From Nemertoderma westbladi (Eukaryota > Animalia > Xenacoelomorpha), in assembly GCA_032718475.1 (NCBI GenBank), contig JAUCBJ010008990.1, positions 1 to 55,323 on the forward strand: DNA of 55,323 nucleotides, in the 5' to 3' direction. This document shows positions 18,865 through 55,112 of the stretch, in pieces; the first letter of the stretch is position 1, and the number at the start of each line of letters is the position of its first letter. The notes beneath the pieces are model-generated. The model saw nothing but the letters and a program-made list of their open reading frames with translations. It made no database searches and was not told the origin of the DNA. The translations under genes were made by a program, and so were the position numbers.

Positions 18865-18899
18865 CGGATCGTAGTAATTTATTAGTCGGACCTACATTA

Positions 18900-20021: not shown

Positions 20022-20153
20022 TCAATTGGACAACTTGACTACGCAAACACTCCTACAGTCCTATTAAAAATAATAGGGAGACTACACCATCGACTTCGTA
20101 GGGAGTGGAGAAAGATCGAGTACCAGCGAGAAGAAACAGGTGGATTTTTAAGA

Positions 20154-26419: not shown

Positions 26420-29400
26420 ATGGCGAAAGGGATACATGGAGAGCCGAGATGAGATGATATCCAAGAGGAAGCAGCAGCTCCATTCAAAAGATTCGGTGCA
26501 AAGGATTACACCATATTCGGAATAAAGGATTTATCAGAAAGTACAGCAAAACTCGCAAAGACTAAATATTACTCGACGGTATTAAAGAGAAGGCAAAATG
26601 CGTTAAGTGAAAGGATCGAAAGTTTACGTAAAACCTTCAACGAACTTTATCCGTACGATGCTTTATGTGATATGGGAGATATCAGTGAAGACCCCGATAC
26701 CGAAATTAGTCGTTTGTATCATACCATGCAATACCTGAAGGCACATGAACGTATGCCTGCGGTACGCGATGAATTCGATGGAATGCATCTTTACAGACGA
26801 ACTCGAGGAGACAATAGAGAAACGAAGGAAGCCTTTTCAGTTTACAAACTTTATTATCAATGTGGTGCTTGTATGCGCGAACAACAAAAGGCGATTCCGA
26901 TGCATTTGAATAAGGAAAATCCCGAACCGATATTGGCGAGGTGTTCGAACCATCAACAACTACGCTACCAGGAAGGAGGGTATCCTTTATCTAATCCATA
27001 TCATTCATTTGCTATGTGTGGACCAAAGGCGGGAGAAATTGTCGTTTGTCCACCTAAGATTGTTGAACCCGATGCATTTGAACTTACGCTGGAAGAGGTG
27101 ACTCAGTCAACCCGCGAAAAGAAAGAAGCTCTTAGCCTATACAGAGCCTATAAGGCTTTCGAGAAAGGTGATATGGAAAAATGGGGCGGAAGACTCGCGA
27201 GCCTACCTTACCATTGGACGTTATTCAGAGACTACAGTTTGCATCCCTGGAAAGGACAAGAGAAATGCAACCGCATAGTACTTCGACTACGACACTCAAT
27301 TTCCCTATTAGTGTACCAGTTCGACAAGACACGACGTATGAAATACCTATTGTGGATCATCCGGAAATCATTTCAAACTTAGAGTTTCTTCCTGCAGTTG
27401 TTCTAAGTGATATGGTTAAGATATATGATTTACGTAGACATATTACGCAAAAGGTCGTGCATAATGTTCCGCCTCATATTCAAGACTTTAGGGAACTGGA
27501 TAGAGCTGGCGCTGATATAGCTCCGAGTAACTTAAGAGGATATCTGACCAGAACAATTCGTTTGTGGATCGGAACAGGAACCTTTGAGTCGGATACAGAC
27601 ATCGCTACGAACTGGCAAGGTAAAATCATTCGCTTCGAGGACGAGAAGGACATAGAGAAGATTTGGCAACCTTCGGAAGAATTATTGGACGAATGGAACA
27701 GAACATTTAGATCGTTTCAGGAAAATGGTTACATGTTTTATGACAACGAGGGCGGCAGCCATCAACAGAGTCTGACTTCCAAGACTATACAAATTAGAGC
27801 GGCAGACGGAGTTCTGCACGTTTTCAGTAGACAAAGGAGCGACAAGCGAATGCCGATACCTCCAGGAAATACCAAGCGGCACCATCTCATCACTAATATA
27901 ATAAAGAAGATGGACCAAGCCTGCGATATTGATGCTAGGATGTTACCGAAGATGGTCAGAAATATCATTTTAGATAAAACCGTTGTAAAGATTGGATCAG
28001 GAGTTAGAGAGGATTTAATTAGCGACTTTGCCAGCATGTCGGACAGTGACGACCGATTACCGACACCTTACGTCGACACCCGACCTCTTATACTGTGGTC
28101 CATAGAACAAGGATACTTCCGTGAGTATGATACTCAGAAGACCGGAACTGGATACATTTCCTACCTGATGTTTAATTGGGATTACAAGGAAAGTAAAAGA
28201 ACAAAGTATATCTAAACGTATGGAGAAGGTGATACTCCAGATAAAAACGAGTTTGAATCACAGCTCAAATGGAGAGGATGCGTGTATTGGGCTATTACTT
28301 CACCTCCAAGGGCGGTACTACAATATTATTTAGCGATAGAGTCATCGGTGAATGTTTGCTTGATCGCCGACATTGTGTCTCGGACTCTAAAACGACATCC
28401 ACTTTGCCTCGGAGAAGATCATACATTCTACGCGGAAGGGAGAATTCATACTGACGTGTTTAGACGATTTCTCGAACCCTTCTACAATTCCGACGCTCAG
28501 TGCAACGCCTTTACTCGAGCAGGATTTAGTATATTTCGAGACGTGTATCTTCGCTGTGCGGGATCTCTTATCGAAAGACCATCTATGTTTACAATATTAC
28601 CTTATGAAGGAGAACGTATCGTGGAGGTTATCGACGAATCACGGCAGACGCGCGCGCCTATCGGTCACTTAGGTGATGATTCCGACTTAACGACGACCAT
28701 CGATGATCCTCTAGAGGAACTTCTTGAGATTGAAAGGAACCTCCCGAAGAAATCTCAGATGGAGATTCGTCAACTTGAAGCAACAGATGCTGTAGTTTGC
28801 ATACAACCTTCTGAAACATACCAACCTATTGATCCAGACGATTATGACTATAGTGTGGGAGGAAGCGCTCGACCCATTGGAGATCTCATATATGAGTGAG
28901 TGTGGTACCCTGCCAATACGATGTGTGGTAAATGTGGTGTCGCTGGACATCATTCGACGAAATGCAGTGGAAACACATTACTACGACTCAACTGATTTGT
29001 GGATGGTGTGGAGATCAAGGGTCCCATACATTTTATACTTGCTGGAGATTTATGGCTCAATGCACATATTGCAATATAAAGGGACATTGAGCATCTGAAT
29101 GCCAACTGCGAGACATACCATACGAACACGAATCTGTAAAATTAGTGCGAAAACTGTTTGATGATTGGGAAGATTTGGCTGACGAACATGTATCGGCGCA
29201 AAGAAGACGGTTCCCAATGAGGGCACATCTTGGATTTTGGGCGGTAAACCCTCAAACTATGATGTCGGAAGGATATATCTCCGCTATGCCACAATATGAC
29301 GAACTAATCGAGGTAGTCGATATTTTGCCTCATGATAGTGGATTTAGAGTCGTGCGCGAATATTTGCTACAGATTCATCCCGATAATAAGAATACATGGA

Positions 29401-29855
29401 ACTTCCAGAAAGTCATTAATCGTATCACATATGGTGAATTCGATCGATTCCGAACAGAAAAGCGGAACAAGGGAGCTTGGTTAACCGTCGCATGGGCGTA
29501 CCGAGCCGCATTCTATTACAATCGTATACGAGCGAGCGTATTCGAGGAAGAGGAGATCCTAGAGGCGACCAACATACCAGCTACTCCGGTTGCGCCGTCT
29601 GCACGCCACCCTCGAGAGGACGGACAGAATAGGATTATAAGGGTTCAGAAAGTGAGCCAACAACTAAAGAAAACTATAAATGTTGAAGAACGAAGGGGAT
29701 ATGAACCGACTATTCGAGTTACTCGGGATATGGTATCACTTCCCAGAGAACCGCAAGGAGGATTAGGCCGCTTCCCGCGCGTTCCCAGACGTTTTGCCAA
29801 CAGTGGATACAACCAGTCGGTCACGAGGAGTCGGACGAGGATTTGGGATTACTAG
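26420..29855 (+). pseudogene. Disrupted accessory ORF of the BEL element: DEDDy-type 3'-5' exonuclease-like domain plus three zinc knuckles
   Basis: FYDNEG (ExoI-like, D 27742, E 27748), TIQIRA, LPKMVRNIILDKTVVKIGSGVRED (ExoII-like), YVDTRPL, W..PP...QYYLAIE (ExoIII-like); knuckles CGKCGVAGHHSTKC 28924-28965, CGWCGDQGSHTFYTC 28998-29042, CTYCNIKGH*ASEC 29061-29102; several in-frame stops and two frameshifts. Confidence 0.72.
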
Positions 29856-30103
29856 AAGGCGAGCTTGTGAGGAAATGGTCGTACCGTCTCCCAACGTCCA
29901 AGGTAAACCAGTGACTCGCCCCATAAGCCCTGTAGTACGAGCCAAGTCGCCTGTACGCAGTTTTCGAGGACGCGGCCGTGCTCAATCCACAAAACGATAA
30001 ATAAAGTGTTATACTTGAAAGGACTAATTATTCCGAACTCGTAAAACTTTTGTAAAGTGGGAAGGAAAGAGTGGACGGAAGACTCGTGAGCCTTTCTTAT
30101 GAT

Positions 30104-30330
30104 TAAATTTATGCAATTTATATTGTTCTAAATTTATGCAATTTATATTGTTCTAAATTTATGCAATTTATATTGTTCTAAGTTTATGCAATTTATATTG
30201 TTCTAAATTTATGTATTTTGTATTGTTCCAATTTTATGAAATTTAGAAAGTTTTATATTTAGAAGGAATTTTATATTTAGAAGGAATTTATATTTAGAAA
30301 GATTTACATTTAGAAAGTGTTATATTTGTA
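30104..30330 (+). repeat. AT-rich tandem repeats in the BEL 3' UTR (25-bp x ~5.5, then ~19-bp units)
   Basis: TAAATTTATGCAATTTATATTGTTC at 30104, 30129, 30154, 30179, 30204; then TTTTATATTTAGAAGGAAT-like units. Confidence 0.85.
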
Positions 30331-30790
30331 GTCATTCCAAACTTTCGCAATTTATTGTTTCGAATATTATGCAATTTATATTTTATAAAGAAGCAGTACT
30401 TGTATTCGCAGTAAATAGAAGGCAAGAGCAGACGGAAGACTTGTGAGCCTTTCTTGTGATTTCATTTGAAATTATTCCGAACTTATGCAATTTGTTTTAT
30501 ATTTAAGTAGCATTTGTACTTGTGATTGTTTGAGTTTATGCAATATTTGAGATGCAATAGATTTATATTGGTGAATTTAATTTAGATTTATATTGTACTT
30601 ACTTAATAAAGCCTTAAATACGTAAAGTTTGAATTTGTAATTATTTTGTATCGAATTATTATGTAAAGGTATTATTGTTAAGATTTAATTTGTAAATATG
30701 TAAGTACGTCCCAAGTATTCCATAATTTGATTTAGTATTGGTGAAAACCGTATATTTTATGCACGATAATATCCTGTTTTCATGGAGCGG

Positions 30791-32692
30791 TATAGAATTA
30801 TATTATCATAAATGCAGTGGATTTTCAAAATTTTATTTTGTTCGAATTAACTTGCTATAAAGATTACATTAAGTCCTCATTTGCATTTACTATATCTATT
30901 TGTATAACATTGTTTAAGTGGTTCAGTAGCTCAGTCGGTTATGCATTAGAAAATCGTTTAGTAGGTGTCGAGTTCGAATCCTAGCAAGTGTGAATTATTT
31001 TTTGTGCTAAGTTTCAACTCATTTGAATTGACCGCTACGATTTAATTGTATCTGCTTAAGGTAGATTAACCAATGCGATTGCAGTTATTAGATAGCAACC
31101 AATGTCGTGCAAGATACGTGTTTGCTGGACCAATGATTATATTTAAAAACCTAGTAGAACTCATAGAACAATCTAGATTTATCTAGATTGTTAGCAGCAC
31201 AAATTTGCTATAAAAGGTGCGATTTTGTTCATTAGTTATTAGATATTATTAGATAGTAACCAATTTAGATAGCGACATTATTTCTTACACACTTAGTATA
31301 ACCTTAATCTTCTTGTTACATTTATTGTATATTAGTTATTGTTTATTTGTAATAAAGTTAGAAAGTATTTGTTACATCTGCTTTTACTATGTTTCACCAT
31401 GGTGAACACCGCTGAAAGACAGATGGCAGGCTAGACATCGGATCGCGGCAATAGACGGGAATATCGGAGGAATGTAGAAAGGAGACAACCCGCAATACCC
31501 ATTCTTAGTTATTCGCCCATCGCCTGAAAGGTTAGACAGCGTTCGATGCCTCGTTACCTAAGCGTAAGACCTAAGATCGAAGGTAGAGGTACTGACACGC
31601 TGTGCGCTAAAAATTACATTTAGGGACTGTACTGTCTTAATTCAGAAAAACCCGCAGTAGACCTTCACATTCCTACGGGAGGAGATCAGGCAGAGAGATA
31701 CTAGTACACAGATAGGACACAGGCACACCAGTACAAGGCATACACATTAGTAGAGTGCAGCAAACTGTACGCCTAACTCATTTGCTAAGTATAGGTGCGT
31801 CGGTGGCCCGTTTGTAGTACAACGGTGTCCATTTGCATTAGAACTTGTAGGCCAGGAAGGGTTACTGTGTTTTTACCTGAATTGAGATTGTACCGTTCAG
31901 GCGGTAGGGCAGTTTACTGCTAGGCGCATATAAATTGAGGCTATTAGGGATACTAACATCTACCGTGTCCCCGCCGACATTCTGATAGGAAGTTGCCGTG
32001 CCCACCTAGGCAACCAAAATTATAGATAGGACGCCAGGCTAGCTATTTTGTAACTGTACGCCTACTGTAGTAAACTAACACATTTCTTCTTAGTATTAGG
32101 GACCTGGTAAATTAAATTGCCGAATTCTGGGCGTAGTATTAACCTTATGCCTGAATTTGAGTCCTGGAAATACACAAAAGGGGAAGGAGCCTTATAATTC
32201 GTGAGTATTGGACCTACAAGCTACAAAATTAGAATATTTGTAAAATGTACACCGGACCCAGTAATTATATATGTGAAGGATCTAAAACTGATTTTGACTG
32301 TTAGAATCAAGACACACGCGCGTTAGGAATTATTTACACCTCAAAATATATAAAATAATTTTTGTCCGTACTGCACTTTGCCCGCTAGTTAGACACCTAG
32401 CTAGCGCCTCTATCTCTCACCCACATATAAATCACACCGCGGCAAAGTATACGAGCGCCCTTAGTCCGTCAGTGAGTCAGCCCGATTTTAGGATTCGCTG
32501 CGCGGGATTTTGTTTTATCGAAGTTTGTCCGTTCGTAGACTGTTTTCTGCCTCACCGGTTATAAGAGACCGATACTGCAATAGATTTGCTTACTTAGAGT
32601 TTACTGTTTTGGTGAGAAGGTCGGATTACGTTTTGATTCACAGACTTTACAGTAAGATATTGCAGGGTACTTTGTTACTGTCTCTTCGAATA
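30791..32692 (+). repeat. 3' LTR (1902 bp)
   Basis: Direct repeat of 14448-16350; preceded by a short purine-rich GGAGCGG (PPT-like) and followed by TSD TCTTT. Confidence 0.95.
30920..31003 (+). promoter_or_regulatory. tRNA-like Pol III cassette in the 3' LTR
   Basis: Same A box, B box and T-run as 14578-14661. Confidence 0.65.
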
Positions 32693-34761: not shown

Positions 34762-37047
34762 TCACCAATCAACCCCATCAAACAGTCCGATGTAGTGGAA
34801 GGGTGTGTCCATGGTTCCCACCACCGACGCCGCGTTTCCCATGAGAATTGCCACCGCCAAGCGTTGCAGCAAAAACTGGTGCGACCGTTGCTCATGGGTC
34901 CGAGCATGAAGACGCGCCCCGACTTCCTGGAGGAAGCTGGCAGTCTCGGGTCCGGGTCGACCAAAGGTCTCAAAGGCCACGGGACTGAAGTAGCAGCGAC
35001 CACGCTCTACCAACTCGCTATACTTCCTAATCTTCACCCGCTCAGCCTCCTCAGCAGCACGGCCACCAGCGATGAGGGTCTGCTGGAGATGACTCGGGGC
35101 GAGGGGATCCGTTACGGTTGCGTCCCAGGCCAATGAGCGGCCGCGGTTCCAAGGCATCACTGTAACCCCGTCAACCCTCTTACCATCGCTCCGACAGAGA
35201 CCTGGGGGCTCAAGGATGGGGGACACCCCGCAGCTGACCAGCGCCCGCCTTACTATATCGTTCAACATAGCGTGGCGGGGATGCCGGCCAGCGCTCCTCT
35301 GGCAGCAGATACCATGGAGACCATCAGCAGCTACCAGGCTACCACAGCGACAGGTATGCGGCTCGACTACCTTACTTCCCAGCCGCATGGCAACGGCGAT
35401 GCGGAACTGGCTGTCATCCAGCTTCAGTCCCAACGACGAGATGGGTAGAGCACTGAGCCAGCATCCGGCAACTGGGTGGTCCAGGGAATTTAACCTAGCA
35501 AGGTCGACTGGGGATGCAACTAGACGCAGCGCTGCGAGGTTAGCCGAGTGGACTGGGGCCACCCACGCACTCTGAGCAGTCGTAGAGGGTAGAGTAGCGT
35601 CCGAAGGGAGGGAGGATATCCAGAACTCCCGGGCCAACTCGTTGGTTGGGCTCACCACCCCCACTGAGTGGAGCAGGCGGTCGGACAGAGAAGAACAGGC
35701 AGCCGCGGAAGCCAGGAAGGCGGATGGTGCGAGCTGCACTGCCGAACTCAGTCCGAGACCGCCCACCCGTGCGGGGAGGCAGGCCTGGTCCCAGGCTGGG
35801 TCGCTGATATTAGTGTTAGCGACTTCCTGCAGGGTACTTCGGAGGATATCGTCGTAGTTCTTAAGTGCTTCAGGGAATAGGAAGCACGGCGCTGTCCGGA
35901 GGAAATAGGTTAGCCGAGGTATGGCAAATGAATTCTTTAGGAGGAAGAAGCCGTGGTGGGCATCTAGTAGAGGTATGCGGCAGGCTAGGGTCGAGAGGTC
36001 CCCTATCTTTGATGCGAGGCAGGATGCTATAGCGGCATCACCAATGGGGGCACCCAGCATTGACAGCTGTTCAAGGGGTGGGTACTTGATACCAGGGCAG
36101 ACTGAGTTGAACTCCAACTGGATACGGGCGCGAGATTCCTCTGTCTCCGGCCCTAGGAAGAAAAGTTCACTCTTCCCAGGGTTTATCCTCAACCCGCACT
36201 TCCCCCCCTCAACAATCACTTCCCGCAGGTCCTGCAGAACCACATGGTAGTCATCCGCCAAGTTACCGTCATCAAGGTACCAGACATTAAAGCTGGACCG
36301 CCTAGCCTGGACGACGGGGTTTACGGTATCACCGAAGAAGGGCGGTCCGTCCGAGTCCCCCTGCTGCACTCCCTCGTCCGAGAGGAGAGTCTGGGATCCG
36401 TGGAGGAGGAAGGATGCCTCCCCGTAGGCCGCTAGAGTGTAGTTATACACGGAGGGGTGCTGGTCGTGGACGGTCTCCAACATGGTATCCCGGCGGATAG
36501 AATTAAAAGCGTTGCTGAAATCTATTTTCAGCAACACTGTCCCAGCCGGGTTCTCCCTCTCCGTCAACGCTCTCACAGCATGTTCTGCGGCTTCCGCTCC
36601 CAGTTTACAACCAATACCTACTTGCACCGACCCATAAGAATGGGTGCGATCCTCCCCCACCAGGCGCCCGGCAAACTTTGAACAGAGTCTCCGTAGAGCA
36701 ACTCCAACAGCGATAGGCCTGATGCCTCCTCCGGTCTTTGTGAACGCGAAGAGGTTCGCCCCGAAGAAGAGGGGACGGATGGCAACCGGCACATCCCCCG
36801 CAATAGTGACGTCCACGAAATGAGAGAGGGTGGAAAGCAGTCGCTCAGCAGCCCCGCCGTTCGTTGGGCTGACAACGTCTTTAAAGATTTGGGGACGCAC
36901 ACCATCTGGTCCTCCTGCACTACCGCAAGGGAAGGACGAAATCAACTTCCGCAGCACCGCGGGGGAGCATGGCTTCGCGGATGAGTTTACTGGCGGTGGG
37001 GGGTCTCTCCGGTCGACGGGCCTGATCGGGTGTTTATCCCGCAACAT
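34762..37047 (-). CDS. Reverse transcriptase + Zn motif + restriction-like endonuclease
   Basis: SAGGPDG, GIRPIAVG, KIDFSNAFNSI, GVQQGD, WYLDDG, GGLGL, CRC..H..C..RH, RVDGVT..PW..G..LAWDAT, E..KIRKY, PVAFETFG. Confidence 0.92.
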   Translation of the reverse strand: MLRDKHPIRPVDRRDPPPPVNSSAKPCSPAVLRKLISSFPCGSAGGPDGVRPQIFKDVVSPTNGGAAERLLSTLSHFVDVTIAGDVPVAIRPLFFGANLFAFTKTGGGIRPIAVGVALRRLCSKFAGRLVGEDRTHSYGSVQVGIGCKLGAEAAEHAVRALTERENPAGTVLLKIDFSNAFNSIRRDTMLETVHDQHPSVYNYTLAAYGEASFLLHGSQTLLSDEGVQQGDSDGPPFFGDTVNPVVQARRSSFNVWYLDDGNLADDYHVVLQDLREVIVEGGKCGLRINPGKSELFFLGPETEESRARIQLEFNSVCPGIKYPPLEQLSMLGAPIGDAAIASCLASKIGDLSTLACRIPLLDAHHGFFLLKNSFAIPRLTYFLRTAPCFLFPEALKNYDDILRSTLQEVANTNISDPAWDQACLPARVGGLGLSSAVQLAPSAFLASAAACSSLSDRLLHSVGVVSPTNELAREFWISSLPSDATLPSTTAQSAWVAPVHSANLAALRLVASPVDLARLNSLDHPVAGCWLSALPISSLGLKLDDSQFRIAVAMRLGSKVVEPHTCRCGSLVAADGLHGICCQRSAGRHPRHAMLNDIVRRALVSCGVSPILEPPGLCRSDGKRVDGVTVMPWNRGRSLAWDATVTDPLAPSHLQQTLIAGGRAAEEAERVKIRKYSELVERGRCYFSPVAFETFGRPGPETASFLQEVGARLHARTHEQRSHQFLLQRLAVAILMGNAASVVGTMDTPFHYIGLFDGVDW

Positions 37048-37714
37048 CGAACAATGTGTCTGGGGTGTCTGGCGCTATGGTGTCCCTGCAGGAAGCCAAC
37101 CGGATGGCCCGCTTTGACGTCACCATCCTCTATCTTCTCAGCAACGGCATTCACAGGCGCGTTGCCTCGACGTGGGCCTGCCTTCTGCGACCCTGCGGCT
37201 CCGGTCGCGGTGGACTGAACCCCACGCGAATGTAAACCCGGAAATCCGAAATCAGCTGGTTGACCTTGGAGGCCAAGGAACGATGATGTTTCTTCCCACC
37301 GTGGCTGGGCGCTGGTAGGCAACAATGCCAAACCAAGAGAAGACATGTCCAGTTGTGAACATTCGTAGGGTCGCCCGCGATTGCAGAGAACAGATCCGAC
37401 AGTAGATCCGCTAAATTGGCCCGCGACGCCTTTGGGATGTGCCGTAGCTGCCGGGTTCTCCAGCCCTTCAGCAGCGCGAGGACTTCCCACTCCGTGGTAG
37501 CGTCACTAACAGTGGGGGGTTACCACTACGTGGTAACCCCCCACTAGATCCCAGGACTGTTGGGGCCGCCCCTGGGGCACCATCTGAACCGGAATACCTC
37601 TGGGAGTGTTTCCCATGGACATGAAGAGGACCATTGAACTTTATCGAGATCATCTTTCCACAAACAGGGCATACTCCTCCGGGGGGACGTGGTCGATCAC
37701 TGGTGGACTAAATT

Positions 37715-40700
37715 AGGGGACCACGACCAGGGGACTGGGACACCCGACCTGGGGACACCATAGACACCCGACCTGGGGACCGGGACACCCGACATGGGGA
37801 CACCCGACTTGGGAACACCCGATCTGGGGACACCCGAATAGGCAACACCCGACTTGGGGACACCTGGCTTTGGTACAACCGATTTGGGGACACTCGCATA
37901 TGACTGGGGGAATCCCCACAAAGCAACTCGCGACCATAGGACACACGACCCGAGTCCTCCCACCTCACTTGACATGGAGACATGCGACCAGGGGACCAGG
38001 ACACCCGACCTGGGGTCACCCGAAATACCCGACCTGGGGACCGGGATGCCTGACCTGGGGATACCCGACTATGGGACACCCGACCTGGGGACCTGGACAC
38101 GAGACCAGGAGACCGGGCCACACGACCAGTGGACCTGGTCACGCGGCCTGGGGACATCCGGCCTGGGGACTGGGTGGCCCGACCTGGGGACACTCGACCA
38201 TGGGACACTCGACATGGGGATACTCGACCTGGAGACACTCGACCAGGGGACACTCGACCTGGGGACACTCGACCAGGGGACACTCGACCAGGGGACACTC
38301 GACCTGGGGACACCCAACTAGGGGGCAACTGACAAGGGTACAACCCACTAGGGGACACCCGTCTTGGGGGGGACACCCGAGTAGGGGCCTCCGGACCATG
38401 GGACACTCGACATGGGGACAGTCGACTTGGGGACACCCGACTTGGGGACACCCGACTTGGGGACACCCGACTTGGGGACACCCGAGTAGGGGCCTCTGGA
38501 CCATGGGACACTCGACATGGGGAGACTCGACCTGGGGACATTCGACCTGGGGACACCCGACAAGGGTACAACCCACTAGGGGACACCCGGCTAGGGGCCA
38601 CCCGACTTGGGGACACCCGAGAAGGGCCCTCCGGACCATGGGACACTCGACATGGGGACACACGACCTGGGGACACTCGACCAGGGGACACACGACCTGG
38701 GGACAACCGACAAGGGTACAACCCACTAGGGGACACCCGACTAGGGGACACCCGACTTGGGGACACACGACTTGGGGACACCCGACAAGGGTACAACCCA
38801 CTTGGGGACACCCGACTTGGGGACATCCGACTAGGGGACACCCGACTTGGGGACACTCGACCAGGGGACACACGACATGGGGACTCCCGACTAGGGGGCA
38901 TCCGCCAAGGGTACAACCCACTTGGGGACACCCGACTTGGGGACAGCCGAGTAGGGGCCCCCGGACCATGGGACACTCGACATGGGGACCGGGACACCCG
39001 ACATGGGGACACCCGACTAGGGGACACCCGACTTGGGAACACCCGATCTGAGGACACACGACTTGGGGACACCCGACATGGGGACACTCGGCCTGGGGAC
39101 ACTCTACCTGGGGACATTCGACCTGGGGACACCCGACTTGGGGACACACGACCTGGAGAAACCCGACTTGGGGACACTCGGCCTGGGGACACCCGACCTG
39201 GGGACACCCGGCAAGGGTAAAACCCACTAGGGGACACCCGACTTGGGGACACTCGACTTGGGGACACTCGGCCTGGGGACACTCGACCGGGGGACACCCG
39301 ACTTGGGGACACTCGACCTGGGGACACTCGACCATGGGACGCTCGACATGGGGACACTCGACCTGGGGACACTCGACCAGGGGACACTCGACCTGGGGAC
39401 ACCCGACCAGGGTACAACCCACTAGGGGACACCCGACTAGGGGCCATCCGACTTGGGGACACCCGAGTAAGGGCCTCCGGACCATGGGACACTCGACATG
39501 GGGACACTCGACATGGGGACACTCGACCTGGGGACACTCGACCTGGGGACACCCGACAAGGGTACAACCTACTAGGGGACACACGACTTGGGGACACCCA
39601 ACTTGGAGACACTCGGCCTGGGGACACTCGACCGGGGGACACACGACATGGGGACACCCGACTTGGGGACACCCGACTTGGGACACTCGGCCTGGGGACA
39701 CTCGACCAGGGGACACTCGACCTGGGGACACCCGACAAGGGTACAACCCACTAGGGGACACTCGACCGGGGGGACACCCGACCTGGGGACACCCGACAAG
39801 GGTACAACCCACTAGGGGACACCCGACTTGGGGACACCCGACTTGGGGACACCCGACTAGGGGACACTCTGCCTGGGGACACTCGACCGGGGAACACCCG
39901 ACTTGGGGACACTCGACCTGGCGACACTCGACCAGGGGACACTCGACTTGGGGACACTCGGCCTGGGGACACTCGCCCTGGGGACACTCGACCTGGGGAC
40001 ACCCGACAAGGGTAAAACCCACTAGGGGACACCCGACTTGGGGACACCCGACTTGGGGACACCCGACTTGGGGACACTCGGCCTGGGGACACTCGACCGG
40101 GGGACACCCGAGTTGGGGACACTCGACCTGGGGACACTCGACCAGGGGACACTCGACTTGGGGACACTCGGCCTTGAGACACTCAACCTGGGGACCCTCG
40201 ACCTGGGGACACTCGACCAGGAGACACCCGACTTGGGGACATCCGGCTTGAGGACACCCGACTTGGGGACAGGGACACCCGACTTGGGGACAGGGACACC
40301 GGACTTGGGGACAGGGACACCCGACTAGGGGACATCCGACTTGGGGACACTCGACCTGGGGACACTCGACCTGGGGACACTCGACCAGGGGACACTCGAC
40401 CAGGGGACACCCGACTTGGGGACACTCGACCAGGGGACGCTCGACTTGGGGCCACCCGACTAGGGGACATCCGACTTGGGGACACCCAACTTGGGGGTAC
40501 CCGACTTGGGGACATTCGACTGGGGGACACTCTACCAGGGGACACTCGTCCTGGGGACACCCCACCAGGGGACACTCGACTTGGGGACCCCCGACCAGGG
40601 AACACCCGACTTGGGGACACCCGCCTAGGGGATACTCGACCAGGGGACACTCGACCAGGGGACATTCGACTTGGGGACACCCGACTAGGGAACACCCGAC

Positions 40701-40830
40701 TTGGGGACACCCGACTAGGGGACACCCGACTAAGGGACACCCGACTTGGGGAGACCCGGCTAGGGGACATCCGACTTTGGGACACCCGACTAGGGGACAC
40801 CCGACTAGGGGACACCAAACTAGGGGAAAT
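37715..40830. repeat. ~3.1-kb GC-rich 15-bp minisatellite (GGGGACACYCGACYW) with higher-order variants
   Basis: About two hundred 15-mers; minus strand reads (RVSP[SG])n or (V[GE]CP[QL])n. Confidence 0.95.
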
Positions 40831-41352
40831 CCGACCAGCGAACAGGGACAAACGGGATGGAGAAACAGTAGCGGGGCCAGGATTACAATACGAAGAGTGC
40901 AATCCAAATCGGAGTCATCGAAGCCCGGTGTTAAAGTTACATCCATTACGTCGTCGAGTTCATCCAGAGTTGAATTCAAGCGCCCCTGCTCACCAACGAC
41001 AGTGGTCTTCCACCTGGGTGAGTGCGCGAGCAAGTAGTCCACGACGCCGTAACCCGAAGTTCGGCAAGACCCGCTGCGGCAAGTGCAGCAGAGCTGGGAA
41101 GGACCCATACGAGAATACTCGAGGTGAAACGTGGAACGAGTACGTGTCTCAACAGGAAATGCCGGCCGCCGGGGCCAGGTAGGTCAGAGAATCAACAAGT
41201 ACGAGAAGCAGATAGCTGACTCAGATTCGAGCAGTATTACCGGTATTATTATATTATTTATTTAATAATCTTATCCTACTTATCCTTAATCTTGAACTAT
41301 TATTATTTTATTATTATTTTTTATATTTTTATTAATATTTCTCTAATTAACT

Positions 41353-41747
41353 ATGTATGGTTTAAATATTGTTAGCTATAACTGTAACTCTGTAAGAACT
41401 GCTCAGTTAATGTCAATCATTAATGTCATTAATTCATTCTATGTAAGAAGTGCGACATTATGCTTCTTCAGGAGCTCCAATTCCCCAAACAAAGAACTTT
41501 CTTTTTTGAACACAATAAACAATGATTTTTGGATCGTGGGTTTTCTACTGCTAACTATTCAGATGGTCTGCGGGTAGGAAGGCCAGCTGGAGGATTAGGG
41601 TTTTTATGGCGAAAGTCCATAACTCACTCTTTTAATATTGTTGATTTTAATGACCCACCACGCATTTGTGGTGCCTCTATTGATCTTTTGAATGTTGGTA
41701 AGTTATTAATTTTTAATGTTTATCTGCCCCATTATTGCCCTGATAAT
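41353..41747 (+). pseudogene. 5' part of a LINE APE endonuclease domain, interrupted by a TIR element
   Basis: NIVSYNCNSVR, CDIMLLQE, GRPAGGLGFLWRK, LLIFNVYLP. Confidence 0.75.
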
Positions 41748-42422
41748 GATAGAGGGCTGTTGCGCTGTCAGTCAGAGAGGTAACAGCCCGTGGGGTAAGG
41801 ATTTACCTCTGGGACCTGTATTAGGCAAAATAGCAGTCGCTGTGTAGGCCCTCCAGTATTGTGCACGGTACAAGACACGAAATTTAGCCCACATCTGTTA
41901 ATAATACACGGTTTCGCGGTACAAGACCATATTAAATTAGACCACCATCTGTAAAATGCTCGCCTGAGTTCAGGAGTTGCACAGATGTCAGGATGTGCTG
42001 ATTCTATATCACCCACTTAGCCCTGGAACTAGACCACTACAAAAACTGATGCGACAGAGCGAGGTACCGTTAGCCTAACATTTCTCGGAGGCTGGTCCGA
42101 TAACACTCAACGCATTGTTTGGTTGGACATTGACATTATTGCATTACAGTGTACATATTACATAGGCCTACTGATTAGTATGGATTGAGAAATTTGATAT
42201 ATTTGGACGTCAATGGATAGGTAGGTTAGGTTTGAGAAACTAATATCATATCCATATTTATGAATATTTATTTATTTGTACTTCCCTCCTGTTTCACTCT
42301 AGCATACTTGAGGCCATTAGGTCCGCTGTTAGAGATAGAATATATGCAACTTAAGACTGCCCGTTCAATAGAAGTGGATTAGGTGGGACTTTGAGTGTCA
42401 GGGGCTAGTGGCTGAGCTGGTT

Positions 42423-42468
42423 AGCGCTACTGATGAGGCCTGTTAGGCTGAAACGTACTTATAGCGCT
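42423..42468 (+). ncRNA. Type I hammerhead ribozyme, unit 1 (variant: G.U at the base of stem II, UUA site)
   Basis: AGCGCTA CTGATGA GGCCTGTTAGGCT GAAAC GTAC TTA TAGCGCT. Confidence 0.75.
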
Positions 42469-42764
42469 GGTTCAACCCCCGGTGACGCGCTCTCATTTTT
42501 TCCACTTCTGAACAAACCCATTATATTACACCTTTAATTACAGTTGCAACAGCTCATCTCCAATTTATTTAATTAATATCACCTGGCAGCAATACTCGAG
42601 CTGAATATTTATTTATTTGTACTTCCCTCCTGTTTCACTCTAGCATACTTGAGGCCGTTAGGTCCGCTGTTAGAGATAGAATATATGCAACTTAAAGACT
42701 GCCCGTTCAATAGAAGTGGATTAGGTGGGACTTTGAGTGTCAGGGGCTAGTGGCTCAGCTGGTT

Positions 42765-42810
42765 AGCGCTACTGATGAGGCCTGTTAGGCCGAAACGTAC
42801 GTATAGCGCT
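42765..42810 (+). ncRNA. Type I hammerhead ribozyme, unit 2 (consensus)
   Basis: Stem I AGCGCTA/TAGCGCT, CUGAUGA, stem II GGCC(U)/(A)GGCC, GAAA, short stem III AC/GU with GUAC loop, GUA site; predicted cut after 42803. Confidence 0.93.
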
Positions 42811-43105
42811 GGTTCAACCCCTGGTGATGCGCTCTCATTTTTTCCACTTCTGAACAAACCCATTATATTACACCTTTAATTACATTTGCAACAGCTCATC
42901 TCCAATTTATTTAATTAATATCACCTGGCAGCAATACTCGATCTTAATATTTATTTATTTGTACTTCCCACCTGTTTCACTCTAGCATACTTGAGGCCGT
43001 TAGGTCCGCTGTTAGAGATAGAATATATGCAACTTAAGACTGCCCATTCAATAGAAGTGGATTAGGTGGGACTTTGAGTGTCAGGGGCTAGTGGCTGAGC
43101 TGGTT

Positions 43106-43151
43106 AGCGCTACTGATGAGGCCTGTTAGGCCGAAACGTACGTATAGCGCT
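43106..43151 (+). ncRNA. Type I hammerhead ribozyme, unit 3 (consensus)
   Basis: Core identical to unit 2; predicted cut after 43144. Confidence 0.93.
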
Positions 43152-43446
43152 GGTTCAACCCCCGGTGACGCGCTCTCATTTTTTCCACTTCTGAACAAAC
43201 CCATTATATTACACCTTTAATTACAGTTGCAACAGCTCATCTCCAATTTATTTAATTAATATCACCTGGCAGCAATACTCGAGCTGAATATTTATTTATT
43301 TGTACTTCCCTCCTGTTTCACTCTAGCATACTTGAGGCCGTTAGGTCCGCTGTTAGAGATAGAATATATGCAACTTAAGACTGCCCGTTCAATAGAAGTG
43401 GATTAGGTGGGACTTTGAGTGTCAGGGTCTAGTGGCTGAGCTGGTT

Positions 43447-43492
43447 AGCGCTACTGATGAGGCCTGTTAGGCCGAAACGTACTTATAGCGCT
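43447..43492 (+). ncRNA. Type I hammerhead ribozyme, unit 4 (UUA variant)
   Basis: Core intact; GAAACGTACTTA weakens stem III. Confidence 0.8.
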
Positions 43493-43787
43493 GGTTCAAC
43501 CCCTGGTGACGCGCTCTCATTTTTTCCACTTCTGAACAAACCCATTATATTACACCTTTAATTACAGTTGCAACAGCTCATCTCCAATTTATTTAATTAA
43601 TATCACCTGGCAGCAATACTCGAGCTGAATATTTATTTATTTGTACTTCCCTCCTGTTTCACTCTAGCATACTTGAGGCCGTTAGGTCCGCTGTTAGAGA
43701 TAGAATATATGCAACTCAAGACTGCCCGTTCAATATAAGTGGATTAGGTGGGACTTTGAGTGTCAGGGGCTAGTGGCTTAGCTGGTT

Positions 43788-43833
43788 AGCGCTACTGATG
43801 AGGCCTGTTAGGCCGAAACGTACGTATAGCGCT
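43788..43833 (+). ncRNA. Type I hammerhead ribozyme, unit 5 (consensus)
   Basis: Core identical to unit 2; predicted cut after 43826. Confidence 0.93.
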
Positions 43834-44138
43834 GGTTCAACCCCCGGTGACGCGCTCTCATTTTTTCCATTTTTTTCCACTTCTGAACAAACCCATTATA
43901 TTACACCTTTATTTACAGTTGCAACAGCTCATCTCCAATTTATTTAATTAATATCACCTGGCAGCAATACTCGAGCTGAATATTTATTTATTTGTACTTC
44001 CCTCCTGTTTCACTCTAGCATACTTGAGGCCGTTAGGTCCGCTGTTAGAGATAGAATATATGCAACTCAAGACTGCCCGTTCAATAGAAGTGGATTAGGT
44101 GGGACTTTGAGTGTCAGGGGCTAGTGGCTGAGCTGGTT

Positions 44139-44184
44139 AGCGCAACTGATGAGGCCTGTTAGGCCGAAACGTACGTATAGCGCT
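44139..44184 (+). ncRNA. Type I hammerhead ribozyme, unit 6 (one stem I mismatch)
   Basis: AGCGCAA CTGATGA GGCCTGTTAGGCC GAAACGTACGTA TAGCGCT. Confidence 0.85.
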
Positions 44185-44498
44185 GGTTCAACCCCCGGTG
44201 ACACGCTCTCATTTTTTCCACTTCTGAACAAACCCATTATATTACATTTTTAATCAAAGCCAGAATTCCAGTACTGGAACCACGATCAACAATTTCGGAA
44301 GTAAAGACTCCATCAACAACAGTCGGGGTTTAAAAAATACAATCGAGGGCAACATTTAACTGGGCGATCATCTATCTGATAGTTGGAAATGAGTGTCTGA
44401 CAGTTGGTATCAGAGTGTCTAATAGTTAGCACCCCATGGGTAAATCATTACCCTATGGGCTGTTACCTCTCTGACTGACAGCACAACAGCCCCTATAG

Positions 44499-44740
44499 CT
44501 GATAATCGCGATGAATATAAACTTTTATAAACGTTTATAAACTGACTTAGTGGGTACTTATATTATAACTTAGTGGGTAAACTAACCGCTCAATACTCAC
44601 AATGTTTATTGATTGATGGTGACTTCAATAATGACCCACCTCTTAATATCTATGTAGAATTTAAACAATGGTGCAGTAGTGTTAATCTCACCGCAGCTGA
44701 TGTAAATGTTGCCTAATAATAGTTACACTTCTGTAATGTT
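44499..44740 (+). pseudogene. Continuation of the interrupted APE endonuclease remnant
   Basis: Resumes after the TSD with DNRDEY and later GDFN (GGTGACTTCAAT). Confidence 0.65.
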
Positions 44741-45374
44741 CAATGTTCAGATGTTCAATTCAATTCAATTCTTCTTTGTATATTTAACACAAAATATATA
44801 AACATATATCAAGGTTCACTTGCACCAACCCAACAACTAGATAGATCACAAATACTACCTACCATAATATACTCCACCTACCAACATAATATTTAATAGC
44901 CAAAAGCTTACTTTACAAACAAGTTTAATAATATGTTCTTATTGAGATTAAACTTTATGTGAAGTTCAGATAACCTCCTATGCCACAGGGGAGAGATAAA
45001 AGTTACAGCAGAGTTAATAATATTATTCACTATTAAGTTTTTACTGGCTTGCAACCGAACAATAATACTGTACATTAATTCCGCATATCTGCTGCACAAT
45101 CCAGTAAGTAATTTGAGACCCACATTTGAGAAGCATTACAGTATTTGGGATAGCTCATCAATGTTCTAAATATATTATTATATGCTACCAACAATTTATT
45201 AATAGTTACTTTTTTGTAATTGCACTACCCAGTCAAAAATCCACATGTATGGGTGTGTATACGTGCATGCGTGTATGTCCGGTCAAAAAAGTGCGATACG
45301 CATGCGGACTGCACGTGTTTCCACATGCGAACTGCATGTTTGTCCGACTGAACTGCATGTGGACCACATACGTC

Positions 45375-46125
45375 CTCCTTCTCCAGCCTCCTTCTAGGCG
45401 CCTCCACTATGTCCTCCCTCTCCGGCGTCCTTATGGGCGCCTCCACACATCCTCCCTATCCGGCTTTCTTTTGGGCACCTCCAATATGTCCTCCCTCTCC
45501 GGCCCCCTTCTGGGCGTCTCCACTACGTCCTCCCTCTCCGGCCTCCTTCTGGGCACCTCCACTACGTCCTTCCTCTCCAGCCTCCTTCTGGGCGCCTCCA
45601 CTACGTCCTCCCTTTCCGGCCTCCTTCTGGGCGCCTCCACTACATCATCCCTCTCCGGCCTCCTTATGGGCGCCTCCAATACGTCCTCCCTCTCCGGCCT
45701 CCTTCTGCTCGCTTCCAATACGTCCTCCCTCTCCGGCCTCCTTCTGGGCGCCTCCACTACGTCCTCCCTCGCCGCCTCCTTATGGGTGCCTCCACTACAC
45801 TCCTCCCTCCCCGGCGTCCTTCTGGGCGCCCCTCCACTATGTCCTCCCTCTCCGGCCTCCTTCTGGGCGCCTCCACTACGTCCTCCCTCTCCGGCCTCCT
45901 TCTGGGCGCCCTCCACTACATCCTCCCTCTCCGGCCTCCTTATGGACGCCTCCACTACATCCTCCCTCCCTGGCCTCCTTCTGGGCGCCTCCACTACGTC
46001 CTCCCTCTCCTGCCTCCTTCTGGGCGCCTCCACTACGTCCTCCCTATCCGGCCTTCTTTTGGGCGCCTCCACTACATCCTCCCTCTCCGGCCTCCTTCTA
46101 GGTGCCTCCACTACGTCCTCCCTCT
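45375..46125. repeat. 39-bp pyrimidine-skewed minisatellite, ~19 copies
   Basis: CCTCCACTACGTCCTCCCTCTCCGGCCTCCTTCTGGGCG units; minus strand reads (EAPRRRPEREDVV)n. Confidence 0.9.
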
Positions 46126-47811: not shown

Positions 47812-48727
47812 ATGTTATTAGAAATGCTTACATAAATGATTGTACTGCGTAACTAAAATATAGGCCTGGCCTACTTGAATTTTCGGAACAAAATCATTGC
47901 AATTTAAAGAGAAGGGGGGGGGGGGGGGGGCAACTAAACTCAATGACGCAAATCCCACCTGCTGACCTGAGCAAATCAACATTGGTAATTATTTATGGAA
48001 AGAAACAGGTTACAGTGGCAGGCTATGGTGTCTCTAAAGGGTCAAATATAAATAATAAAAACCTCTATGAAACAATAAAATGCTGCAGTAATAAATATTT
48101 GTTACTACTTTATTGTTTCAGAGGTTTTTATTAATATTAATTTTACCCTTTAGAGTCGCCATAGCGGGCTATTATGCAAGCAATCAGCTATTATGTGCTT
48201 CGATTTTCCCTTGGAGATGGTTGAATTTTGTTTTGTTGATTGCGTCTAGAACCCCCCCCCCCCCCCCCCCCACATCTCTATTTTCGAGTTAGTACGGCTT
48301 TTGTTGAGTGGTGAATTTGGTGAGCACCAAAATTTACATTTACGCCTAAAAATAAGAGTTACAATGATCTGGAGCATTATAAAAATTATTCCATTAGAAT
48401 CAGCACTCCTAGACATTTTTTGGGTCTGATTCAGACAAGTAAATGATAAGGGAAGGGTAATATGGGTCAATGCCAACCATATTGACCAATGTCTCGGAAG
48501 TTATTTTTGAAATTATCAAAGCCAACCAACCATTCATTCTCGAATGATTTACATTTTTGTATATTTTGTGTCTCGTACGTGACTTGGTCAATGGTCAATA
48601 CGGTTGGCATTTAACATATACAACATTTACATCCATAATAATAAATAACCTGGTATATACTGTACTGTAGTTACGAGGGAGGTTTTTATTAAACGTAATA
48701 CATTCAAAACGTGACGCTACTGTTAGA

Positions 48728-49511
48728 ATAGTACTTAAGTCATATCTGAACCAATATGAACCCAATCTGAACCCAATCTGACCGAATCTACTGTATATAC
48801 CAAATCTGAATCTAAAATAGAAAGAGGGGCGAAAATTATTAATTTTTGGATTCACAATTTTGAAATTTGAAGAAATTTTACATATTTATTTTCATATTTA
48901 AATTTGCCGGCAGCCGCGCTACTACTGATGTGTTGGGGAGTGACAACATACCTCAGTCAGTCTGTACATAGGCTACCTACATTACAGTTCTTACACCTCA
49001 AGGCCTACTACAGTTACTGCTGTACTGTGTGTATTCAGTCGTTAGCGTTATACTATACAGTAGCTACAGTACCTGGCTAGGGGTAGGCAGCATGGTAGCG
49101 AAACTGAACTTCAACGAGTCCCGTAAATCTGTAGTTTGTCAGTTGGGCTACCGCCTACCGGTACAAGGTAGCTATGAGCTATAACGCCAACGACTGCATA
49201 GGCCTCCATACATTACAGCCTCAGTAAATGTAGTAGGCCTGCCTGGAGCTGTAAGAATTGTAATGTAGGTAGCCTATGTGCAGATGTATGATGTCAGCAG
49301 TAGTACTGCAGCTGCAGTACAAATACAAATGCCGCAATACAAAATTTAAATATGAAAAAAGATATGTAAAATTTCTTCAAATTTCAAAATTGTTAATGCA
49401 AAAATTAATAATTTTCACCCTTCTTTCTATTTTCGATTCAGATTGGGTTCAGATTTGGTATAATTCTTGAGATTGGGTCCAGATTGGGTTCAGATATGGT
49501 TTAAGTACTAT
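48728..49511. mobile_element. Foldback MITE with ~175-bp imperfect terminal inverted repeats
   Basis: 48728-48906 (ATAGTACTTAA..TCTGAACCCAA repeats..ATTTAAATTTG) is the reverse complement of ~49340-49511. Confidence 0.8.
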
Positions 49512-50460: not shown

Positions 50461-50496
50461 AATTATTCGCTGTTACCAATTATACTAATTATTATG

Positions 50497-50608
50497 TAAC
50501 TTTTTGTTGGGCACAGCTTTTGCAAAGTCGGCAATGACGTCCAGGTGGGATCGAACTGGTGACCTCCAAGTTGGAAGTCTGACGCTCTAACCATTCAGCT
50601 AGCGGCTC
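50497..50608 (-). mobile_element. tRNA-derived SINE head
   Basis: Minus strand GAGCCGCTAGCTGAATGGTTAGAGCGTCAGACTTCCAACTTGGAGGTCACCAGTTCGATCCCACCTGGACGTCA: A and B boxes present, acceptor stem unpaired. Confidence 0.7.
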
Positions 50609-50841
50609 AGGTAAAAGATAGACCAGGAAATACTATCTGATACATTGTATGTCCGCAATTTACATCCTGATGGCCTCACAACTGTCAATATGTTGCCACT
50701 GCGCTCAACCCTATCGTACCAGTATCTCACTAGTTCGATCCCACCTGGACGTCATTGCCGACTTTGCAAAAGCTGTGCCCAACAAAAAGTTATAATAATA
50801 TGAAACCACTTATTCACCACTTAATATGAAAACACTTATTC

Positions 50842-51395
50842 ACTACAATACCAATTATTATGTGTAGCAGAACTACATTACCAATTATTATGTGTAGCAG
50901 AACTACAATACCAATTATTATGTGTAGCAGAACTACAATACCAATTATTATGTGTAGCAGAACTACAATACCAATTATTATGTGTAGCAGAACTACAATA
51001 CCAATTATTATGTGTAGCAGAACTACAATACCAATTATTATGTGTAGCAGAACTACAATACCAATTATTATGTGTAGCAGAACTACATTACCAATTATTA
51101 TGTGTAGCAGAACTACAATACCAATTATTATGTGTAGCAGAACTACAATACCAATTATTATGTGTAGCAGAACTACAATACCAATTATTATGTGTAGCAG
51201 AACTACAATACCAATTATTATGTGTAGCAGAACTACAATACCAATTATTATGTGTAGCAGAACTACATTACCAATTATTATGTGTAGCAGAACTACAATA
51301 CCAATTATTATGTGTAGCAGAACTACAATACCAATTATTATGTGTAGCAGAACTACAATACCAATTATTATTATGTGTAGCAGAACTACAATACC
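50842..51395. repeat. 30-bp near-perfect tandem repeat, ~18 copies
   Basis: ACTACAATACCAATTATTATGTGTAGCAGA units; A-to-T variant at 50878, 51088 and 51268. Confidence 0.97.
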
Positions 51396-52749: not shown

Positions 52750-54157
52750 TTAAGACTTATTATTGAAAATAATATTGACAGGCGCGTGAAACTGTGCCCC
52801 CTGCAACAAGCTACTCATGAATTCAGACTTTGTTGACGGAATCTCGATATTCGTTTCTTGACGAACTGTATCGACTACTTCGTGACTCTCATTTCCTCCG
52901 CTACTCTTCGAAACTTCTCGCCCTGATACACATTGACTCAATATCGTACTCAAGGATCGCTGAGTAGTAGTCGATGGTCGGATGTAAGACGTTGTTGTTC
53001 CCAGATTCGCATGTCCCAACTGTATTTGGGCAAAATTGGATGGCTGTCCAGAATCAACTATAGCCTGCGCCGCCGTCTTCCGATAACTCATCAGTGTAAT
53101 CTTTCGATTATCTGTTGTCAATCCTGCACGGCCGAACAGATCCCTTAATATAGTAGGGAAGGTGTGTTTTCCAACCGGTTGCATGGTGTACCAACTATCA
53201 TCACGATTGGCCGGTACGGTTGGTTTGGGACGAACCCAAAATGGTGCTTCCTTGTCCATCTTCCCATCTGGAAATCTATGTTTAATGTAACACTCGAATA
53301 GAGTCACAGGACAACAAGTGCAATCTTCGGGAAACTCGAAAGCTTTCACAGGGAATTTTCTAGGAGCAGTAATACCCTTTCGAGCCTTCGTTATCCGCTC
53401 TTTCAACTGAAGATAGAACTTATCTTCTTGGATGCAATAATGTTTCGTAATGTCTTTGACACGCATTTGGCGCATTTCTACGCCAGGTCTTGTCCCAAAC
53501 TGAGTAGTAAGAACTAGATACAGTGTATCACGCAGCTGAAAATCCAAGTAATCCTTTGTCCTTCAATAATCTGAAATCCGACGCCTCTAATGGGTCACTC
53601 GAGTTAGCAAGGTTTCCTTTGCCCGATGCTTTTATTTGGGATAGACGGGCCCGGAGAATTTCTTTGGAACGGCTAAATTCTGGTAATTTAAGGACATCGC
53701 CATGCCCCAAGTCTTTAAAATGACGCAGCAAACCATAGAAGTAACTTCGTAGAGAAGTTGTCTCTAACTTTTCTCCATTTTTCTTCTTGTATTTACGAAT
53801 AAACCCATGAAAATTTATAGCCAGCACTTGAACAGATTGTTTATCTATATCTTCTGAGCATTTAACCAGATGAAGATAATTCTGAAAGGCAGAAACTGAT
53901 TGCCGAGTTGACTCAGTTGTGTTATGATTATGCGTTTCCATTAGATACTGGTCATCATCATCATTGTTTTGAGATAGGCGATTGCAAAAACGATCATCAG
54001 ATGAATTGTGCGGACCACTGACAAGGGGATATGTTTGAGTTTGACTCGCATCTTGATCTTCGACATCCGCTGAAAACATTGCTTCCAAATCACCCAAATC
54101 TGGACACTCGAAGCCTAGGCCTATTAAATCACTAGGCCTAAGCAATTGCGATTCCAT
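52750..54157 (-). mobile_element. Crypton-type tyrosine recombinase (DUF3504-like), with one frameshift near 53530-53547
   Basis: SLRSYFYGLLRHF; FGTRPGVEMRQM (R), RITKARKG (K), CPVTLFECYI, WYTMQPVGKHT, ITLMSYRKT, LGHANLGTTTSY (H, Y); no RT nearby. Confidence 0.82.
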
Positions 54158-55112
54158 CGATTTAACAAGAATTAGACAAAAGAAGTACCGGTACAGGTGG
54201 GCTTACTTCTTTCCTGTAGCCTATTCACTTCGAATCTAACTCTTAACTCTTGGTACCGTACTAACCCAGTAACCAGAGTAGCCTATCAACTCAACACTGC
54301 AACAGCACAACAGGTACCGACCGGTAGGCCTAAAGGCTAGCTTATTTATAGAAGTACAGTCAGTACACAGTAGATATGAAGTAGGCTATATATAGCAGTA
54401 TGCAGTACAGCAGTAGACTGGTAGAAGCATGGCTGCCTGTAAGTGATGAAGTGTGCAGAGTGCCAGTAGTGTGCAGAAGTGTGTACAGGTGTAATGTAGC
54501 CTATTGTGCATAGCATAGTGTTGTAGTGCAGTGTAGGGTTGAATATTCGGGAGGGGGTCTGAATTTTGACTGTCTAGTTTTTTAACGTAATTGTTGGTTG
54601 CTATCGCTTTCGTCCTTCTGGGCTCCTCCCGGAGGCGCACACACGAGGTGGACGTGTTCCCACCACCCTTGGGGCCAGTCCAACTGATGTTTCTTATCAG
54701 ACCATGCCGGAGGGTGGTCCGATGCTTCCCGGGTTCAATTTTCAATCCCCCGATCGCACTGGCACAGCTCGTCGCATGTGTAGCCAGATGGTCGGCTACT
54801 GTCAACTTACTGTGGCCTGACTGTACATTGAGCCAACTCAGAGAGTCAACCGGCAGGTGGACCAGTAGTTAACGACAAGGTGGTCAACATTCGAAGACAT
54901 TGAAAACAAGATATGTAGTCATGCTGAATGCATGAAGATTGATATTCTTAAGGATTTTGATGATCTATTTATCGCTGTTGTCGACCTAGAACGCAGGTTT
55001 AAAATCCTTACAGTTGAATATGAAGAAATGAAAAATGCTGCAGTGGCGAGGGATAATATACCTCAACTACAGGTAGCACAACCTGCAATTAGGGCTGAAC
55101 GCCCAAAATTAA

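Follow-up and report, generated by a model that had tools for sequence, protein, structure and literature searches.

In contig JAUCBJ010008990.1 of the Nemertoderma westbladi genome assembly (GCA_032718475.1; positions 1 to 55,323 of the forward strand, hereafter the window), we identified a tandem array of hammerhead ribozyme units that lies inside a copy of an inverted-repeat DNA transposon, and in which each ribozyme is placed between sequences resembling the A and B boxes of an RNA polymerase III (Pol III) promoter. The array occupies positions 42261-44246 on the plus strand and consists of 5.8 units of 341 bp. Tandem Repeats Finder reported a tandem repeat at 42261-44254 with a period of 341, 5.8 copies and 96% matches, in agreement with an initial annotation of the stretch that had described six units of ~341 bp. 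The predicted cut positions of that annotation, after 42461, 42803, 43144, 43485, 43826 and 44177, were all recovered, with spacings of 342, 341, 341, 341 and 351. Its statement that the array codes for no protein was likewise borne out, as no stop-to-stop frame of at least 100 amino acids overlaps the array. The G+C content is 0.42-0.44.

All six units, which are on the plus strand, contain a CUGANGA / GAAA / UH core with helices I-III and an open helix I. The type I hammerhead descriptor gave no match elsewhere in the window and none in 20,000 dinucleotide shuffles of one unit. The initial annotation had assigned the full core to each unit; a type I hammerhead is indeed present in all six, but the helices next to the core are changed in units 1, 4 and 6. 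A fully canonical core is found only in unit 2 (42765-42810), unit 3 (43106-43151) and unit 5 (43788-43833), of which units 2 and 3 are consecutive and unit 3 is the sole unit unchanged between the A and B boxes. In unit 1 (42423-42468), helix II reads GGCC/GGCU with a G10.1-U11.1 pair, and a U at position 16.2, which is also present in unit 4 (43447-43492), abolishes the C15.2-G16.2 pair of helix III; unit 1 is predicted to be impaired. Unit 6 (44139-44184) has an A.A mismatch in helix I beside the core. Cutting at all six sites, as initially proposed, is thus an overstatement, three of the six units being changed beside the core and helix III being of the dimer type. The search with Rfam hammerhead models that had been suggested as a check gave nothing at the gathering score in the whole window; a search of 3.5 kb returned weak Hammerhead_3 matches only, and Hammerhead_1 (RF00163) matched unit 3 at 43107-43150 with 23.3 bits, below the gathering score of 34 (E 7.8e-4 in a 131-nt search). 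Based on the tandem 341-bp, non-coding and abundant units, the type I hammerhead and the G+C content of 42-44%, the array very probably belongs to the animal non-LTR (long terminal repeat) retrozymes. This is the class given by the initial annotation, which missed the Pol III boxes, the terminator-like T run, the host transposon and the neutral decay described below.

In all six units the hammerhead is located between an A box and a B box. In unit 1, the A box (TGGCTGAGCTGG) is found at 42409-42420 and the B box (GGTTCAACCCC) at 42469-42479, followed by a run of six T (T6) at 42496-42501 as candidate Pol III terminator, all on the plus strand. In the other units, the A box is found at 42751, 43092, 43433, 43774 and 44125, the B box at 42811, 43152, 43493, 43834 and 44185, and T6 at 42838, 43179, 43520, 43861 and 44212; the unit with T6 at 43861 has an extra duplicated T7 at 43870. 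The consensus of both boxes was taken from the type 2 promoter description in PMC10137851. The B box matches GGTTCRAnYCY at 11 of 11 positions in all six units. The A box, also in six units, matches the 11-nt consensus at 10 of 11 positions, and at 12 of 12 when the optional tRNA position 17 is included, an extra base known from tRNA D loops. The two boxes are separated by a spacer of 48 nt, the B box begins 8 nt past the cut, and T6 follows 16 nt 3' of the B box.

A zero-mismatch pair of an A box (11 or 12 nt) and a B box occurred once in 150,000 shuffles and in none of 154 real tiles from the remaining window, and when the ribozyme was held fixed and its flanks were shuffled, with the commonly known form of the consensus, the box pair did not arise in 200,000 trials. 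With up to two mismatches allowed, the descriptor found just three further sites in the window (14585, 30927 and 50601), each of them a tRNA-like head. T6 is the sole run of at least four T per unit; that the remaining 335 nt lack a T4 run is only weak support, because 2062 of 40,000 shuffles do equally well. Judged from the sequence, the bases read as outer helix I appear to double as a type 2 Pol III promoter, and we consider the boxes probably real and once functional. A literature search found no paper with a hammerhead between A and B boxes, with Ferbeyre 1998, Rojas 2000, Hammann 2012 and the PMC7229834 supplement of invertebrate retrozyme sequences, which could show the family or the layout, outside its coverage.

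The pairing UGAGCU/GGUUCA, given in the initial annotation as an extension of stem I, was present in the minimum free energy structure of four of six 116-nt folds, but in five of six folds of the predicted 102-nt transcript it met competing pairings and had a pair probability of 0.00-0.03. In units 2 and 5 one G-C pair of this extension is broken. Helices I and II formed in most units in the 102-nt folds, and a bulge after 7 bp of helix I as well as a UGUUA loop II, the candidate partners in a tertiary contact of loop 1 with loop 2, were seen in some folds, with an unstable distal register. Helix III consists of two pairs closed by GUAC, and its sequence ACGUACGU is palindromic; as a hairpin it has a predicted energy of +2.4 kcal/mol, as a self-duplex -11.8, and -8.1 when one partner has U16.2. 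Since helix III is short, weak and palindromic, cleavage would be expected as a dimer, and this predicted route is likely but not certain; such a helix III layout is described for animal type I hammerheads acting as dimers (PMC4209133), but coral and mussel monomers are described as cleaving on their own (PMC7229834).

Contigs from public runs (X1-X4; X1 and X3 represent one sample) were aligned to two stretches. The unit family is plainly abundant. In X1 the left flank had a depth of 25 and the unit a summed contig depth of 67,000-258,000, and in X2 the corresponding values were 5.8 and 14,000-117,000, a ratio in the thousands for both runs, such sums giving a rough order only and not a copy number. 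The contigs of three studies contain many unit variants with unlike flanks, which indicates many genomic copies at further sites. At both changed positions of unit 1 the canonical letters prevail in the X1 contigs (G 99.5% and C 67% of depth), and the changes therefore belong to the present copy. Of 21 variants listed for the unit, five fall between the A and B boxes; two are the changes of unit 1 itself, and the other three are a G-to-A at a purine position of the A box, a change in loop II and a change in loop III that keeps the self-pairing. The listed polymorphisms are tolerated by both motifs, which provides weak support. A further run, X5, which carries a different organism label and is RNA only by guess, gave one 371-nt contig at a depth of 5.5, made up of one unit and an overlap of 30 nt; it was not used as evidence, and it does not speak for a circle because a tandem array yields an identical shape. 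The hammerhead core pattern matched no viral contig. Its sole match among metagenome contigs was L001 (1277-1301, minus strand), in which 25 of 26 core bases are alike and the sequence is otherwise unrelated; this hammerhead precedes small repeated frames in microbial DNA of high GC content. The pattern of core plus B box matched one viral contig, L002, with an unconvincing hammerhead fold.

The element that hosts the array is a non-autonomous inverted-repeat DNA transposon, as seen from its arms, its likely target duplication and its many copies. The left terminal inverted repeat (41748-41813, plus strand) has a core of 60 nt at 41754-41813 that is 90% complementary to the right arm (44433-44498, minus strand); for other copies, the pieces listed stop at 44492, 44494, 44497 or 44498. 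Directly outside both arms lies the 8-bp direct repeat CTGATAAT, at 41740-41747 and 44499-44506 (both plus strand), likely a target-site duplication with a probability of 0.23% of arising by chance; it becomes 9 bp with one mismatch if the element ends at 44497. The interior, to which no strand is assigned, is split by the array into a left part (41814-42260) and a right part (44247-44432), and both ends of the element are multi-copy in the run contigs. Each host arm starts with a hairpin of its own (GGGCTGTT ... AACAGCCC), after which comes another short hairpin (41754-41789 and 44457-44492), and directly outside the right target duplication, at 44516-44541, an 18-nt perfect AT-rich palindrome was observed. 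In common copies of the transposon, the sequence before 44247 differs from the array (contig depth 1117 in X2 and 608 in X4) and is absent from the window. A contig of X3 spans the junction between array and transposon at a depth of 215.7, with flank contigs at 216.4 and 203.2; as left and right flank depths were unequal in X1 and X2, the single-copy baseline is approximate. The lower depth around the left junction (42241-42281) was disregarded, as the reads had been cut at 42255-42289. Because common copies differ before 44247 and the junction is at single-copy-level depth, the array most likely entered one transposon copy and part of the interior was lost. Flank contigs of X1 and X2 match only from 44536; their sequence up to that point is a different one, perhaps from another allele or locus. 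Within the coverage given above, the literature search found no paper on a retrozyme inside a miniature inverted-repeat transposable element (MITE).

The array stops 69 nt past the last cut, in an AC-rich stretch, the last base common with the unit being 44246; the sequence TTTAAT at 44249-44254 matches the unit and the AT-rich target alike. Ten contigs in each of X1 and X3 leave the unit right after the base corresponding to 44246 and enter long unlike flanks, while 20 and 11, respectively, continue in the unit. In X2 and X4, one contig each breaks off at cut +70, where the reference continues. Among the listed contigs, in which such copies are few, copy ends thus fall at cut +69 to +75, as they do here. 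The purified protein of a Penelope element begins to reverse-transcribe at an internal AC-rich stem-loop of its RNA, on AT-rich DNA (PMC11167929), and by subtraction of the numbers given in that paper the start lies 85-92 nt past the hammerhead cut. By analogy, a Penelope-type insertion of the array is likely. Across all 15 pairs of units, 4-6 of the 268 positions compared differ, a star-like pattern, and two letters common to all units differ from those in 94-97% of the family depth; the star-like divergence together with these two array-wide rare letters fits a single copying event from one template. No target duplication of at least 5 nt was found at the array ends, and no inverted piece longer than 8 nt adjoins the array at this locus. 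In other copies, joints between opposite strands may point to two-armed insertions at other sites.

Because the A and B boxes and T6 surround the ribozyme, the RNA to be expected from the locus differs from the 341-351-nt read-through monomers assumed initially. Pol III would initiate ~11 nt 5' of the A box (near 42398 in unit 1) and would mostly stop at T6, so that its main product would be a ~100-nt RNA comprising hardly more than the ribozyme. A polymerase passing T6, or RNA polymerase II (Pol II) arriving from outside, would meet no T4 run for 335 nt and would reach the next ribozyme; 341-nt monomers made by Pol III would need such read-through, since T6 would end most transcripts. Two cuts would then release the 341-nt monomer, which a host ligase could close into a circle. 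The predicted cut divides the promoter, leaving the linear monomer with the B box first and the A box last, and a circle or a tandem copy would therefore be needed to restore it. Reverse transcription would begin in the AC-rich stretch ~70 nt past the cut, pass around the circular template several times and insert the product at an AT-rich target in a single step catalysed by a Penelope-type reverse transcriptase, the array having decayed neutrally since. Taken as a whole, a Pol III-transcribed retrozyme that cuts itself mainly as a dimer and was pasted by a Penelope-type reverse transcriptase into a copy of a DNA transposon is an account that we favour on balance. A more far-reaching version, which we hold tentatively and as rather doubtful, is a self-driving retrozyme, in which the hammerhead replaced the anticodon arm of a tRNA-derived Pol III gene and the same bases serve as boxes in the DNA and as outer helix in the RNA. 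The unit would then be a ~100-nt self-cutting RNA gene that yields the 341-nt circle by leakage through T6 and becomes active again only if copied round the circle or in tandem, which would explain the tandem form.

Several observations weigh against the account that we favour. The boxes were spotted by eye ahead of testing, and the full match of the A box depends on the optional extra base. The 48-nt spacer exceeds those of human tRNA genes, given as 32-34 or 41-43 in PMC10137851, where 7SL has 52. A tRNA cloverleaf was not recovered: ARAGORN found none at the default or the 95% score, unit 1 passed at the 90% score (as did 13 of 2000 shuffles) and all six units at 85%, with a different D arm (as did 128 of 2000 shuffles), both at pseudogene level, and Rfam gave no tRNA match. 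T6 speaks against an efficient production of monomers by Pol III. Within the array, the cassette varies at 4 of 71 positions compared to 15 of 270 outside it, and the motif in the present array is decaying neutrally, at the pace of the remaining unit sequence. Broken subfamilies exist: in X4, helix I is interrupted by 4 inserted nt in one abundant contig, which accounts for 1108 of 4149 depth. The predicted circular monomers are 52-61% paired with z values of -0.76 to +0.56 against 40 shuffles each, no better than the shuffles; the retrozyme papers give no shuffle control for the self-pairing of circles. Eight of nine frog retrozyme dimers are reported not to have cleaved (10.64898/2026.07.22.740005), and Penelope insertion in vitro did not require hammerhead cleavage (PMC11167929).

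An ordinary promoterless non-LTR retrozyme, transcribed by read-through from outside, would carry A and B boxes only as relics of a tRNA or a short interspersed nuclear element (SINE), or as mere helix I sequence, and we find this unlikely, though it is the most serious of the alternatives. Everything but the boxes agrees with the published class as described in PMC7229834, retrozymes are said in a review to seem devoid of promoters (PMC7761336), T6 would hinder the making of monomers by Pol III and not by Pol II, and the cloverleaf is missing. What is difficult to reconcile with mere relics or helix sequence is that a B box matching at 11 of 11 positions, an A box close to perfect and T6 occur in tRNA-gene order and are kept in six units, a combination very unlikely to arise by chance; the alternative helix from the box bases is moreover unstable in five of the six short folds.

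Frog retrozymes are reported to derive from the pseudo-LTRs (pLTRs) of Penelope-like elements (10.64898/2026.07.22.740005), and the present repeat could be such a pLTR, or a satellite grown in place by unequal crossing-over, with the ribozyme as a passenger and no circle. A letter common to units 1 and 4 is found in ~0.5% of the family depth and suggests some recombination after insertion, and neutral decay inside the array would also agree with this origin. The star-like divergence and an end shared with other copies are, however, better matched by a single insertion, and no Penelope frame adjoins the array; we consider a pLTR or a satellite grown in place improbable. The idea that the array belongs permanently to the inverted-repeat transposon and is carried along when the latter spreads finds some backing in the intact arms and the likely target duplication on both sides. 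It is already largely refuted and most improbable, since common copies carry other sequence here, the X3 contig crosses the junction at single-copy depth, and the abundance of the unit family far exceeds that of the transposon interior.

Compared with known systems, the array most resembles the animal non-LTR retrozymes of coral, mussel and axolotl, which are described as tandem 150-450-bp units in high copy number with one type I hammerhead each, a 2-bp helix III with a tetraloop, a G+C content below 50% and neither LTR nor coding frame (Cervera and de la Pena 2020, PMC7229834; Li, Clavereau and Pollet, 10.64898/2026.07.22.740005). It differs by having an A box, a B box and T6 where retrozymes are described without promoters (PMC7761336), by ending here without target duplication, and by predicted circles that do not pair above shuffles. 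The Schistosoma Sm-alpha and Sj-alpha repeats are SINE-like and tandem, have units of about this length and combine a type I hammerhead with a Pol III promoter serving the next unit (PMC6765202, PMC8490949); in Sm-alpha, however, the promoter lies entirely 5' of the ribozyme and comes to stand at the 3' end of the monomer, whereas in the present units the ribozyme separates the two boxes, the predicted cut divides the promoter and T6 comes next. Newt satellite 2 and the axolotl HHR_Amex1/2 share the ~330-350-bp unit, the weak palindromic helix III and cleavage as a dimer, which is predicted for the present array (PMC7229834; PMC6765202), and the transcripts of newt satellite 2 are, in contrast, described as made by Pol II. 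The pLTRs of Penelope-like elements have a palindromic helix III, an AT-rich target and, as far as the few listed copies show, a copy end at a fixed point past the cut in AC-rich RNA in common with the array (PMC4209133, PMC11167929), but no reverse transcriptase or GIY-YIG frame is found beside the array, and its hammerhead is canonical and not minimal. Finally, tRNA-derived SINEs with a type 2 promoter have A box, B box and T6 in the same order (PMC10137851), whereas the array is tandem and circularly permuted, is without LINE-derived (long interspersed nuclear element) tail, A-rich tail or target duplication, and has the ribozyme at the place of the anticodon arm.

The retrozyme-type array is thus of a known kind, while a ribozyme that is apparently nested in a Pol III promoter and followed by a terminator would be new. 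As to the transcription of animal retrozymes, the main review describes them as seemingly promoterless and relying on read-through (PMC7761336). The present family allows a precise test of retrozyme transcription, in which the boxes are defined and the start, the terminator and the sizes of the fragments can be predicted. Should the nested arrangement hold true, it would link retrozymes to tRNA-derived SINEs and offer a naturally occurring Pol III cassette with which RNA circles can be made; with inactive boxes, the array would simply add to the list of ordinary retrozymes.

Several other elements were observed in the window. A BEL/Pao-type LTR retroelement at 14448-32692 has direct repeats of an unusual length of 1.9 kb (14448-16350 and 30791-32692, 98.5%), frames with DUF1759, Peptidase_A17 and DUF5641, and four further frames at 26453-29855 without a Pfam match; at 27172-28212 a recognition below threshold to 3'-5' exonuclease clusters is a weak lead only. 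The tRNA-like A/B box heads at 14585 and 30927 (plus strand) lie in the long repeats of this element and are followed by T6 after the B box, and the third head, at 50601, is on the minus strand. A 770-aa frame at 34762-37074 (minus strand) shows a weak RVT_1 match, and its C-terminal part appears to resemble the restriction-like endonuclease of CRE-type non-LTR elements. The fragment of a LINE reverse transcriptase at 9248-10342 (plus strand) has thousands of relatives, the best among the matches listed being 53-65% identical, and a frame at 52750-54202 (minus strand) with DUF3504 and a tyrosine recombinase domain is Crypton-like. Minisatellites at 38178-40838 (15 bp, 177 copies), 45364-46125 (39 bp) and 50842-51395 (30 bp) open long frames on both strands. 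Long inverted repeats at 48022-48165, 48728-49511 and 50488-50799 probably represent further MITE-like elements.

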